Below, piece after piece: positions 8,623-26,900 of a stretch of DNA of 60,000 nucleotides. How positions within the stretch are numbered: the first letter of the stretch is position 1; the number at the start of each line of letters is the position of its first letter. Source of the DNA: Amphiscolops sp. MND2022 (Eukaryota); NCBI GenBank assembly GCA_964187785.1, contig OZ076409.1:16928001-16988000 (forward strand), in the 5' to 3' direction. Made by a program: the position numbers and the translations under genes. Under the pieces are notes generated by a model. It worked only from the letters and a program-made list of their open reading frames with translations. It made no database searches and was not told where the DNA came from.

Positions 8623-8729
8623 TAGTGAGTAATGAGGAGTTGAATTACTGGAGGTCAAGTAACTAAAATAGTCAAGTAATTATATAAAATAGTCAAGTAG
8701 TGGATGGAGATCGCGGAGATTTAGCAGAA

Positions 8730-8938
8730 AGTAGTAAGCGAATTCCCGTTCCTGATATAAGAAAAAATTTAAGTTCGTAAAACCATTAAAAAATTAATCT
8801 TTTTTTCACAAAATACCCGTTCCTGATATAAGAAAAAATTTAAGTTCGTAAAACCATTAAAAAATTAATCTTTTCTCACAAAATACCAATCAAATCATCA
8901 AAAATTAACCTTTTTTCACAACTAAAAAATTAACAAAA
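8730..8938 (+). repeat. Left TIR of the Polinton, containing a ~70-bp tandem repeat x2
   Basis: Near-perfect inverted match to the right end for ~170 bp, degenerate to ~210 bp. Unit CCCGTTCCTGATATAAG...CACAAAATA is repeated. Confidence 0.95.
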
Positions 8939-8959
8939 TTGATGAAAAATAACTATGAA

Positions 8960-9353
8960 ATGAATTATTTATCATTCAAAGAATTTGTTAATAAATATGG
9001 ATTAAAAAATGAAGCACCTTCCAATGTAGAAATAAAAGAAATCTTAAAACTCATGAACACATCTTGTGGAATATATATGAGAGATGATAAGTTTACCACC
9101 ACATCAGGTATAGTTAACTTACATCCAACTAAAGGAACACATTGGGTTATGTTTACAAACCAAAACTATTTCGATTCATATGGCTGTCCACCACCACTAA
9201 ATATAACAAAATAAATTAATAATGGCATCTATTCAGAATATCAAATCCAGAAAGACGACAGTTATTGTGCAGCTTATTGTTTGTATGTGTTGTATCTCAA
9301 ATATAATTGACTTCAAAAATGCAGTTTTAAATTTATACTACCAAAATTTATAA
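8960..9353 (+). pseudogene. Adenain-like cysteine protease (disrupted)
   Basis: GTHWV, YFDSYG and YQIQ...YCAAYC motifs; in-frame TAA at 9212 and a frameshift near 9300. Confidence 0.85.
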
Positions 9354-9542
9354 TTCCTAAATGAAGAAAATTAATAATTATTCAGCTCAATTTAAAATTA
9401 TTCAAAAATCAATGAATACCAATGAGAATCAATTTGATGAGAAAATAATACAAAAAAAATCAAAAAAAAATTATCGAAACAAAACCAAGAATTGATAAAT
9501 AAGATATCCGCAAGTGGATTTAAACAATTTTTCTCCTAATAA

Positions 9543-22510: not shown

Positions 22511-22929
22511 TTTGACACTATTGCTGGGTTGATTCTATAAAAAACCCTCACGAAAAGTATGTGTATCTTTTAATTATCTTCAACTTTTGTTTCTGTTTTT
22601 CTCCTAAATTATTTCCCGTTGAGATATTGAGTAATACCATTTAATGCTTAAACATGTGCAGATAGGTTATAGATTAAACATGTTAGAGATAAACTATATA
22701 ATCAGCAATTAGAGGCTAACTTTAAACATGTATAAAAGACTTAGGTCGTTTCTAAAACTTATTCTTCTACTGTATTGTACGCTGGGATATGGAACACTTT
22801 GCCTGAACAACGTCTTGTTTAAAAAAGTTAACTAGAATTTTTTATTCAACTAAAACCACGTTTAATTCCATTGTTTTAATATTTCCCCAAAACCATAATT
22901 TAGAAGTGTATTGTGTAAATACTCAGAAT

Positions 22930-23337
22930 TCACTTTGATTTTTGTCTCCTGATAGACACTGGATTTTCTTCTGGCAGTGCAGCTTCAATTTGATAAGGAT
23001 TGAATCTCATTGCCCTACGTTGGTTATTTATTCTCTTTTTGGTGTCGAGTTTTTTGTTGATGGCCTTCTCACAGTCAGCTAGTTGTATCTCCAAACTGCG
23101 ACGGCGGTTCTCATCTTTCAGTAGGTTTTTCAACTCTCCGATGATCCTTATCGTGTTGTCACACATTATAATATGGTTGTTTATTTCAACCGTTGATAAA
23201 TTTTGTGCCAATGACATTAAACCGTGTATATTAACTGCATGGTCATCACCCGCGTATGCCTCCATCAATGAGATACGAGAACGAATATTTTCACAACAGA
23301 TATCTAATCGATTCTCCAAAGTCTTTTGGCCAGGCAT
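22930..23337 (-). CDS. Orphan accessory ORF of the Polinton (~135 aa, helical, basic C-terminus)
   Basis: Open from ATG 23337 (MPGQK...), ending RRAMRFNPY...RRQKSK. Confidence 0.5.
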   Translation of the reverse strand: MPGQKTLENRLDICCENIRSRISLMEAYAGDDHAVNIHGLMSLAQNLSTVEINNHIIMCDNTIRIIGELKNLLKDENRRRSLEIQLADCEKAINKKLDTKKRINNQRRAMRFNPYQIEAALPEENPVSIRRQKSK

Positions 23338-23722
23338 CTTGATGTTTTGTGATAACTTCAACTTTAGTTTCAACGGTTGCAAAAAAGAGCCAAAAATTTA
23401 TCAGTGAAGAAATTTTTTTCCAAAATTTTTGTCAGCAAAAATATTTTTGCCAAAATTTTTGCCAGGCTGGCACGAATTCTGGCAAATTTGCTTTGATGTT
23501 TCTTTCATGTTTCTCGAGTGTGAAATGTCAATTTGTCTGCATTGCACACTTCACTGCAAAAATGAATTGAATTGCACATGTTACACTTTTAAGCCAGCGT
23601 TGCTGTAATTCATTCCAAAAAAATTTTTGCTACACAAATTTTCTCTATTACCATAATGGAGGTTAGTGAATTTTTGCTTCATGACAAAATTGTTTATTAA
23701 TAAATTTTGCTCATTGATTTTT

Positions 23723-23931
23723 ATTTTGTTAATTTTCAGTTGCGAAAAAAGGCTGATTTTTAGATGATTTGATTGGTATTTTGTGAAAAAAGATTAATTT
23801 TTTAATGGTTTTACGAACTTAAATTTTTTCTTATATCAGGAACGGGTATTTTGTGAAAAAAGATTAATTTTTTAATGGTTTTACGAACTTAAATTTTTTC
23901 TTATATCAGGAACGGGAATTCGCTTACTACT
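23723..23931 (-). repeat. Right TIR of the Polinton
   Basis: Reverse complement of 8730-~8938, including the duplicated ~70-bp unit. Confidence 0.95.
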
Positions 23932-26900
23932 GCAGAAATTGTGAAAAAACGCAACACGGATTATGATTTTTCTCCCTCATTATATGTGGGCGGAAAATAA
24001 AGATTATGATTTTCCTCCCCCATTATATGTGGGCGGAAAATAATAGGAGAAATACGAATTACCCGGATGTTACTACTTTGGTCGTCGCAAAATGGGGTCT
24101 CAGATACGAATTTACCGGAGTTGACTATATATACGTATAAAAGAGTTATAACCCTCTTGATGTCATATGCAACTGTAGCTATGACGAGGCTCAATTCTTT
24201 TATGAAAGTATTTTCATTGAGTTTTTTTTCGTTTGGCCCTATTGGATCCCAAATGAATGAAAAAAGTCTACAAAATTTGGAAATATCAAATAGACCAAGC
24301 GGGCTCATTACGACCGCATTTAACCGACGAACCGTTAGACCAACAATCAAAGATCGTTCAAAAGCTTATGTGTAATACGCCACTGCTTGAGAAGTGCTCA
24401 TTGAAATGCACCAGTTTCAAAACTGATCAACAAAAAAATCAAAAGCATTCTTGTCGGCCCGCTGGCGTGCCGAAAATAGAAGGCTACCCTGCATGCAATC
24501 CTGGAGCATGTGAAACGTTAGAGTAATCTCGACCATTACACTCCAAACTACTCGACTTTAACTCCAAACAAACTTGATGTTGAAGCAATCAAGGAATGAA
24601 TTATCAACTATTTGCAACCTTGAATTTTTTCAATGCTTGCACACGGAGACAAGCAATGCATCAGGAACTCTTGAAAGACTGCCATGTTATCAGTTTTTAA
24701 AGAAAGACAATCAGTCAGTATTGAACGAGCCGAGAACTTCTCAAGCTGGCACCCAGTTTAATGCACAAAAAGCTCAAAGTCTCATCATTATGCTGAGCAT
24801 TGCTTTTTCTGAAACTCTCATCAATTTCAGACACCAAAAAATGGAGAGGCGACCTTTGGGTTCGAAAATCTTTTTTATTTTCCGCCCATATTCCATATGG
24901 GACACGAAAATATTTAAATCAAAGGGTTTTTTCTTCAAAATTTGCCAAGCACCGAATGCATTTTCAAATTGAAGGGTGTCACCCACAGAATTCAAGTCAC
25001 ATAAATTTAGCTTCGAGCGATATGTATTCATAGAGAATTTTGAACCTTTTTGGGAATGATGAAAATGACCCCATAATGACCTACAATGACCCCGAAACTA
25101 ACAAAAATCCAAAATTTCCGATTTTTAACGTTCTCGTTCAATTTTTGTCAATTTTTTGATAGACATCGTGGATAAGAATGTTCAAAACGTTCAACGAGGC
25201 AAGACTTCGCTGTCCAGTAGTCTTTTATGAAACGATATATGAGATTTTTTGAAGAGAAAATAACCCAAAATCCACAAAAAGTCCAAAATCTCCTGACTTT
25301 GATTATTTTTATGCAATTTTTGTCAAATTTTCGATAGAGGTTGTATATTAGCATGTTGAAAAAGATCAGCAAGGCAAAAGCTTGTTGTCTCGTAGCCTTT
25401 TCTGAAGAGATAATAACGGGTTCTTAAGTGAAAAACATCTCAGATTGACACCGGAAATGACAAAAAAAACAAAACGTTCCAATTCTCAAAATTTTCATGC
25501 AATTTTTGTCAAAAATTTGAAAGATTTCGTGGATTGGAATGCTGAAAAGGGTCAACAAGAAAGGGCATCTTGTCCAGTAGGCTTAGTGAAGAGATAAATG
25601 CTGTCTTTTTAAATGAATAATGTCTCACACTGACACCGAAAAAAACAAATTTTCCGAAATTTTCGGTTCTTACCATTTTTATCAATTTTTGTCAAATTTT
25701 CCATAAACGTCGTGGAATATTCTTTTAAAACAGTAAAACAATAGAAGAATTCTTTGTTTCAGAAAATATTGTTAGGAGATGAAAAAAACAATTTGTATAA
25801 GAAAAATGCATCAAATTGACACAAGTTGTCGAAAAATCCAAAACTTTTTGTTGTTTTCGATGCAATTTCGGTACAGTCTCCGAGAGATTTTATGTGCTAG
25901 AATTCAAAAACAATCAAAATTGAAACAACAAGCTATGCCGAACCCTTTTTGACGAGAACAATGCAGTGTTTTGCTTCAAAAACACTTCAGATTGACTCCA
26001 AATGAGTCAAAAAAATCAACCTCTTTTTCAACGTTTTTATGCAACTTATGTGTTTTTCCGAACTGTTTCGAATTCAGAATGCTGAAAAACGTTCAACAAC
26101 AACTGAACGCGAAAACCAGTACGCTTTCTCAGGACATAATTGCAGACTTCGGTGGGAAATTGCTCAAAATTGACAGCAAAAAGTACAGTACGTCAAAAAC
26201 GCTGCTGAATTCTGACATTTTCAGTATTTTTTATTTGAGATTAGAACTTTTAGCTAGGATAAAAGCTTCGAAAATCTCCAGATGGTACAACTAGGTCCTC
26301 AGCTTGCTTTTCGAAGATTTCGAGGCAAGAATTCGCTCTCCAGTAGTCTTTTATGAAAAGATATATGATATTTTTTGAAGAGAAAATAACCCAAAAGGAC
26401 CCCAAATACCACAAAAAGTCCGAAATCTTTTGATTTTGAATATTTTTATGCAATTTTTGTCAAATTTTTGATAGAGGTTGTATATTAGCATGTTGAAAAC
26501 GATCAGCAAGGCAAAAGCTTGTTGTCTCGTAGCCTTTTCTGAAGAGATAATAACGGGTTCTTAAGTGAAAAACATCTCAGATTGACACCGGAAATGACAA
26601 AAAAAAAACAAAACGTTCCAATTCTCAAACGTTTCATGCAATTTTTGTCAAAAATTCGAAAGATTTCGTGGATTGGAATGCTGAAAAGGGTCAACAAGAA
26701 AGGGCATCTTGTCCAGTAGGCTTAGTGAAGAGATAAATGCTGTCTTTTTAAATGAATAATGTCTCACACTGACACCGAAAAAAAACAAGTTTTCCGAAAT
26801 TTTCGGTTTTTACCATTTTTATTATTTTTTGTCGAATTTTCAATAGACTTCGTGGAATCTTTTTTTAACATTGTAAAACAATGGAAGAATTCTTTGTTTA

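Follow-up and report, generated by a model that had tools for sequence, protein, structure and literature searches.

Beta adintoviruses, or group-1 Polintons, carry an OTU-like protein-primed DNA polymerase (pPolB) that mostly lacks a match to PF03175, an rve integrase, an adenain-like protease, an FtsK/A32 ATPase, a hexon-like major capsid protein (MCP), a probable penton and membrane-active accessory genes; they have terminal inverted repeats (TIRs) and integrate (PMC8502044, PMC12451622). Their family is now called Eupolintoviridae, formerly Adintoviridae, and belongs to the order Amphintovirales and the class Polintoviricetes (PMC12451622). Vertebrate Mavericks (Barreat and Katzourakis 2021, PMC8097293) have (AGT)2//(ACT)2 ends, a 6-bp target-site duplication (TSD), lengths of 12.7-24.6 kb, an accessory region near the end and a capsid gene under purifying selection, and most of their copies are defective. 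No Maverick virion has been observed so far (bioRxiv 2026.06.19.733378). Here, we analyze a stretch of 60,000 nucleotides from Amphiscolops sp. MND2022 (contig OZ076409.1, positions 16,928,001 to 16,988,000, hereafter the window), which contains an element with many of these features. We consider it very probable that a Polinton of the Beta/group-1 type inserted here into the germ line, and that it belongs to a host-restricted lineage without a name whose copies, now in the hundreds, arose in more than one wave of multiplication.

Unlike the Beta adintoviruses as covered in these sources, the window's lineage has two ATPases, one of them with a membrane helix, a cysteine-rich (CxCxxC) pPolB tail of about 75 residues and a very high copy number; at the sequence level, organism-named pPolBs are 29-35% identical to that of the window. 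The vertebrate Mavericks of PMC8097293 follow a two-module gene order that the window's element lacks and are listed with one ATPase; their highest counts, found in hosts where every copy is defective, are about 280-290. For stony-coral polintoviruses, expression has been shown; the accessible text of that study makes no mention of a second ATPase or a transmembrane segment (PMC11131425). Mavirus shares the double-jelly-roll MCP fold, pPolB, rve integrase, A32-like ATPase and TIRs, but has largely lost the exonuclease motifs that the window's pPolB keeps (PMC11161782).

The hexamer GCAGAA stands directly outside the AGTAGT...ACTACT ends on both sides as a 6-bp TSD (Table 1), the chance of this hexamer being 2.5e-4 from the composition of the flanks. 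Together, TSD and ends delimit an element of 15,202 bp at 8730-23931. The TIRs agree at 168 positions, with one mismatch and one gap, across the first 170 bp, and at 203 positions across 210 bp, and each consists of two units of about 70 bp. TIRs with (AGT)2 ends, a 6-bp TSD and a size of 13-25 kb are the marks of a Maverick/Polinton (PMC8097293; bioRxiv 2023.08.22.554363), and all three are found here. The termini, TIRs and TSD that a preliminary description of this DNA had reported are where it placed them, and the element as assembled is complete from end to end. The window contains no empty-site paralogue. GC content is 27% in the element core compared with 33-41% in the flanks, and about 81% of the element is coding. 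As a separate observation, the CpG observed/expected ratio is 0.56 in the element (8730-21700) compared with 0.79-1.11 in the flanks, which may reflect methylation-driven decay or a viral composition. A viral contig (L001) carrying a 17-base word of the TIR was rejected as a chance match because it has nothing further in common with the element.

The gene content agrees with the claim of the same description that Polinton replication, integration and morphogenesis genes are packed into 15.2 kb, with penton and protease recognized by motif and position alone. From left to right, the genes encode the protease, the probable penton, a small basic protein, a coiled-coil open reading frame (ORF), ATPase-1, ATPase-2, the integrase, two small ORFs, a 173-aa membrane protein, MCP and pPolB, followed by repeats of about 155 bp and a 135-aa ORF. 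The MCP matches PF21738 with an E-value of 1.3e-19. Its structure model (pLDDT 89.9, from 41 aligned sequences) shows a double-jelly-roll fold for the predicted protein, and the best Foldseek matches in the PDB were the MCPs of PBCV-1, an iridovirus and mavirus (E about 1e-13), along with the Sputnik capsid protein; further matches were adomavirus, MELD-virus and adintovirus entries. A sequence search of the PDB returned nothing for the MCP, the penton or a natural relative of the pPolB. The integrase keeps the three DDE motifs, and its larger piece matches PF00665 below the cut-off (E 1.6e-5). We presume that the 341-aa ORF is the penton, from its position and from a motif resemblance; it had no match in Pfam, PHROGs, PDB or NCBIfam. 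The protease is likewise assumed from its position and from apparent motifs of the His/Asp/Gln/Cys type, picked out by eye across frames that are split, and its first piece had no match in family searches.

The accessory repertoire of the Beta type includes Cupiennin-like and GasderminX genes. The 173-aa protein has a hydrophobic stretch at about residues 65-105 and leans towards SLATT, with a weak match to SLATT_1 below the cut-off (E 0.019); its neighbor cluster in the Atlas is rich in Preplasmiviricota (score 0.93, low recognition). SLATT genes are on record in such viruses (PMC8502044 supplementary map; bioRxiv 2026.10.13.758929). The small basic protein, which has no Pfam match, shows an amphipathic stretch by eye, from which we infer a core or cupiennin-like protein.

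To place the lineage, we relied on the pPolB. All motifs sought were found, namely the vOTU-like Cys and His, Exo I/II and Pol A/B/C, in addition to N-terminal Zn fingers, an endonuclease-VII/HNH-like insert and the C-terminal CxCxxC tail. Endonuclease-VII-like inserts are known from other Polinton polymerases (PMC11161782; bioRxiv 2023.08.22.554363). A search for long relatives recovered 291 proteins, some labeled as DNA polymerase or PF03175. Among the best 120, which we examined, 19 relatives without an organism name are 37-89% identical to the window's protein, while 15 organism-named ones, all from animals, are 29-35% identical. A quick IQ-TREE analysis used 68 of the 121 rows: besides the window's own sequence, the 35 best matches, all named sequences and every fourth of those remaining. 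It united the window with the 19 closest relatives in a single clade, with SH-aLRT support of 100 and a stem of 0.57. Among the relatives listed, the C-terminal CxCxxC motif occurs in 17 of the 19 clade proteins but in only 2 of the 101 others, and the tail mostly spans 72-79 residues in the clade compared with a median of 20 elsewhere. Among full-length MCP representatives at 50% identity, identity to the window falls from 93% to 51, 40 and 36%, and then to about 30%; the names of the ten that were looked up are uninformative.

Neither the pieces of the window's pPolB nor its close relatives P0216 and P0226 matched PF03175. These missing matches fit the Beta PolB class of Starrett et al., defined by an OTU-PolB divergent from PF03175 and grouped with group-1 Polintons (PMC8502044). 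By its sequence, the element looks like a Beta/group-1, Eupolintoviridae-like Polinton. The label "group 2" was considered and dropped, as PMC8502044 assigns PolBs of the Beta class to group 1. The suggestion that the element may represent an unclassified lineage accordingly stands in part: the clade is host-restricted and has no named members, but the element itself fits a known type of Polinton.

This lineage is abundant. Searching with the MCP, we recovered 1,666 proteins among 5,300 candidates; all of the best 120, which we examined, are at least 80% identical to the window's MCP, none is named, and their clusters sum to 682 member sequences. By this count the family appears very large, with hundreds of related copies, counted as sequences irrespective of how many assemblies or haplotypes contributed them. 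Matches to the MCP, pPolB and ATPase-2 often lie on contigs of equal size (for example, 427,460, 528,280 and 92,515), suggesting that many copies have a common gene set. Related loci were absent from the viral contigs searched with the MCP, pPolB, ATPase-2 and two distant proteins, and from the metagenome contigs searched with the MCP or the TIR pattern. In an acoel genome, Mavericks have been found to make up 4.5% of the assembly (PMC6451197).

The copies fall into groups of different age. In two MCP clusters near the window (132 and 118 members, 15 of each listed), 8 of 15 sequences are full length and internal identity is 93.6-94.6%. A third cluster (80 members, 15 listed) is 88% identical to the window, with all 15 sequences full length and an internal identity of 99.0%, part of which could arise if several assemblies contributed alleles of one locus. 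Judged from these predicted proteins, the window copy is a member of an older subfamily, half of it truncated, beside which there is a much younger one. The nearest MCP is 95.6% identical to that of the window.

We next asked how selection has acted on the capsid gene, using 77 near-copy MCPs including the window's, a set in which cluster representatives are over-sampled, and dividing the columns into thirds of conservation derived from 32 distant homologs. Residues private to a single copy are spread evenly: they account for 1.88% in the most conserved third, 1.87% in the middle one and 1.74% in the least conserved. Columns that differ between subfamilies, however, rise from 3.0 to 7.6 and 13.8% across the same thirds (Fisher P 0.0015), and the two patterns differ (P 0.0017). 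For the sequences compared, this shows a capsid gene that would have been under purifying selection while the lineage multiplied and under neutral drift once inserted. Purifying selection between waves argues that the family spread with a working capsid rather than by pure transposition.

The window's own copy is damaged. We counted 15 lesions in 7 of its 13 genes, nine stops and six frameshifts, with those of pPolB and ATPase-2 placed against natural relatives and the others read by eye from the frames. They include two stops and two frameshifts in pPolB, two frameshifts in ATPase-2, one stop in the integrase, and one stop and one probable frameshift in the protease. Since pPolB and the integrase carry stops, the assembled copy is inactive. 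The stops and frameshifts reported earlier in pPolB, integrase, protease and other genes, and the inactivity deduced from them, are thus borne out. The four genes that had been called intact, those for the MCP, penton, ATPase-1 and membrane protein, do have open frames; the MCP, the only one compared with relatives, has eight private substitutions. Complete but defective copies are common in animals (PMC8097293).

That four structural genes are open while seven others are broken raises the question of whether the host kept the structural module for its own use as the replication genes decayed. A lesion-free MCP and penton would occur with P 0.049 under random placement, although this pair was chosen after the fact, and the spread of lesions across all genes shows no departure from random (P 0.09 and 0.11). 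Moreover, the eight private changes of the window's MCP compare with a median of 7 in the 76 near copies, and five of them fall in the most conserved third. Because private changes ignore conservation, the open capsid frame is best seen as a chance survival, and we regard host use as very improbable.

Even less credible is an element that is intact in the animal, with lesions introduced by assembly errors. Four of the six frameshifts do lie within 15 bases of a mononucleotide run of 5-9 bases, typical sites of long-read error, and some frameshifts may be read errors; the background figure of 13.6% was obtained with a narrower distance and does not match this count. Nine of the 15 lesions, however, are in-frame stops, two of them in pPolB and one in the integrase, and private missense changes are spread as under neutral decay. 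In addition, a sister cluster on contigs of sizes matching those of the window's subfamily is full length in 15 of 15 cases, which speaks against a high error rate.

Private missense changes of about 1.9% correspond to about 0.9% of bases (72% of random changes being missense), and the pPolB end branch of 0.041 yields an upper divergence figure near 1.9%. From these figures, the window copy would have decayed neutrally by about 1-2% at the DNA level since insertion. With this amount of decay, about 5.4 stops are expected, and 9 were counted (P 0.10); for the TIRs, the expectation is about 3 substitutions, and 1 was observed (P 0.18). The element had been described as fairly young; this agrees with its divergence since insertion but not with its membership of the older, half-truncated subfamily. 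The close agreement of the TIRs, with one substitution and one gap in 170 bp, could alternatively mean that an already defective copy was recently moved in trans by an intact relative, resetting its TIRs. Consistent with this, the pPolB records that rank first and second in BLAST identity start a short way inward of this copy's N-terminal frameshift, through either a shared lesion or the start chosen by the gene caller. Yet the TIR count is unremarkable at the coding divergence, as the P-value above indicates, and the nearest MCP is too distant for a twin copy to have been seen. We therefore consider movement in trans improbable.

A distinctive trait of the lineage is its second ATPase. A search with the middle piece of ATPase-2 yielded 283 longer proteins. 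Among the best 120 that were examined, none of them named, 91 have a canonical Walker A motif (in two variants), which is degenerate in the window's own ATPase-2. A hydrophobic N-terminal helix of 19 residues is present in 76 of the 84 listed relatives with at least 50 residues before Walker A, and in 55 of the 60 that are full length. One natural relative, P0482, matches Pox_A32 above the cut-off; its single-sequence model has low confidence as a whole, but high confidence across residues 1-20, which are part of the helix. Foldseek matches of the ATPase-2 model to packaging ATPases are treated as a lead only. ATPase-1 aligns weakly with P0482; since ATPase-1 and ATPase-2 align around Walker B and GRH alone, we read the two as distant paralogues.

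ATPase-1 is likely the packaging motor. ATPase-2 is most likely, as predicted from its sequence, a single-pass membrane-tethered DNA translocase of the A32/FtsK type, with its motor in the cytosol according to the positive-inside rule. It would hold a DNA pump at a membrane, to serve either assembly or genome entry. A role in packaging or assembly at the membrane has nearly an even chance of being correct. Another role, or none that is indispensable, is a lesser possibility. The start of ATPase-2 lies head to head with that of the integrase, less than 20 bases apart, and on this arrangement a function in transferring the genome across a membrane during entry can be proposed, though we hold it to be rather unlikely. 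Some Polintons carry an additional ATPase. In the literature searched, whose coverage leaves out the founding paper and Repbase, we found no description of a second or membrane-anchored ATPase in a Polinton. If Polintons do conserve a second ATPase anchored in the membrane, their machinery for assembly or entry would gain a component not described before.

Several points weigh against the overall interpretation offered here. The deep position of the pPolB clade has a support of 17 and comes with a long-branch warning, in a tree that includes no reference Beta adintovirus. One clade member, P0228, matches PF03175, a hallmark of the Alpha class, at 3.5e-16. The names of the penton and protease have no database match behind them, and the ATPase-2 model is poor (pLDDT 49). 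Finally, the selection test used full-length MCPs of at least 390 residues alone (169 of 210 records), and is subject to survivor bias.

A common start signal is likely, from sequence context, for most genes of the element. TAA stands directly before the ATG in 7 of the 11 ORFs that start with ATG, compared with 27 of the 522 ATGs in the element (5.2%, P 3e-7), and AATAA precedes 4 of the 11 starts compared with 6 of the 522 ATGs; two of the 11 starts (9361 and 21677) were chosen after the motif had been seen. None of the ORFs scanned matched a TBP family. TAAATG is the consensus of the vaccinia late promoter (PMC11423596). This resemblance, together with the predicted membrane anchor of ATPase-2, would suit a helper-dependent lineage, which, like mavirus, has its genes transcribed by an RNA polymerase that a large DNA virus brings in during co-infection, and which assembles at cytoplasmic membranes. 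The element is, however, compact and 73% A+T, so that a stop codon, a poly(A) signal or an A-rich Kozak context yields the same word, the choice of two starts was not blind to the motif, and no helper virus is known for the lineage. Helper dependence is for these reasons unlikely. A wider proposal also remains speculative and improbable as a whole: that of a distinct genus-level Polinton lineage with two A32-type motors (one soluble with a Zn finger, one membrane-anchored) and TAAATG-started genes, assembling or entering at a membrane, perhaps dependent on a large virus, an animal counterpart of mavirus with a very young subfamily still spreading in a host that has hundreds of copies.

Returning to the germ-line Polinton insertion, its history can be outlined from Polinton biology, in which integration, protein-primed replication, capsid assembly and ATPase packaging are described (PMC4028283). 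The rve integrase would have inserted the linear genome, leaving the 6-bp TSD. The pPolB would have copied the genome from the TIRs by protein priming, while the MCP, penton and protease would have built capsids with maturation by the protease, and ATPase-1 would have packaged the DNA. After insertion, this copy presumably decayed to the extent estimated above and no longer replicates or integrates itself. The lineage stands out by two or three distinctive traits, namely the second ATPase, the pPolB cysteine tail and the TAA-ATG starts; the insertion itself is ordinary. As complete but defective Mavericks are common, a single insertion carries little weight and the family matters more. A host with hundreds of copies, a capsid purified between waves and a young subfamily of 99% identity is a good place to seek natural particles or free genomes.

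Table 1 Features of the Polinton-like element, in window coordinates.
Feature	Position	Strand	Details	Basis of name
Left TSD	8724..8729		GCAGAA	
Left TIR	8730..8940	+	AGTAGT end; two ~70-bp units; near-perfect over 170 bp	
Adenain-like cysteine protease	8944..9353	+	short; stop 9212-9214, probable frameshift near 9300	motifs by eye
Probable penton (minor capsid protein)	9543..10568	+	341 aa, open frame	motif resemblance (assumed)
Small basic protein	10659..11062	+	amphipathic stretch; frameshift near 10757, stop 10934-10936	
Coiled-coil ORF	11112..12107	+	conserved-looking; stops at 11280, 11376, 11955	
ATPase-1	12082..13083	-	N-terminal CxxC cluster, Walker A, Walker B, GRH; open frame (333 aa)	
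ATPase-2	13277..14291	-	N-terminal membrane helix and A32-like P-loop domain; frameshifts near 14090 and 13790	
rve (DDE) integrase	14300..15118	+	stop 14516-14518; no ATG at expected start	
Two small ORFs	15168..15888	+	15168-15497; ~15481-15888 with stop 15700-15702	
Membrane protein, SLATT-like (weak)	15946..16467	+	173 aa, open frame	
Double-jelly-roll MCP	16529..17758	+	409 aa, open frame, 8 private substitutions	
pPolB	17873..21677	-	frameshifts near 21567 and 17951; stops at 19524 and 19353	
Imperfect ~155-bp repeats	21750..22530		about five copies, non-coding, 36% GC	
Accessory ORF upstream of pPolB	22930..23337	-	135 aa	
Right TIR	23720..23931	-	ends in ACTACT	
Right TSD	23932..23937		GCAGAA	

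Two further features lie near the right end of the element. The tract of ~155-bp repeats upstream of pPolB has a GC content above that of the core and no match in the flanks, and may be a regulatory tract or a nested insertion. The 135-aa ORF has a GC content of 39% and a coiled-coil look, and an Arg-x-x-Pro-Tyr word near its end resembles a nuclear localization signal of the PY type. Searches of profile libraries gave it no family match, and an LxCxE motif, sought by eye, is absent.

The flanks of the element hold repeats and gene fragments of several kinds. Just left of the insertion, at 8500-8622, 5.3 copies of a 15-bp tandem repeat follow a tRNA B-box-like word. ARAGORN finds no tRNA there, nor was there any tRNA or Rfam match in the DNA searched; the stretch is perhaps a SINE remnant. 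Some 3.5 kb from the insertion, a WD40-like ORF piece (4815-5198) with a plausible splice acceptor near 4872 is probably an exon of a host gene. To the right, 25300-40000 is occupied by a young satellite. Its unit of ~1.14 kb recurs about 12 times in tandem, most units being 92-100% alike, and at two places the spacing is longer, at ~1.6 kb. Dispersed repeats of 35-55 bp that the longer of these units share, in inverted orientation, with the left flank (3761-7942 and 35014-39406) are likely a small host transposon. Further on, a 4.87-kb unit, whose ORFs have no clear Pfam match, is duplicated head to tail with 99.5% identity (44775-54504), either a recent segmental duplication or an assembly artefact. 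Fragmented ORFs at 55364-58463, one of which has a C2H2/BED-like zinc finger, are probably a decayed DNA transposon.

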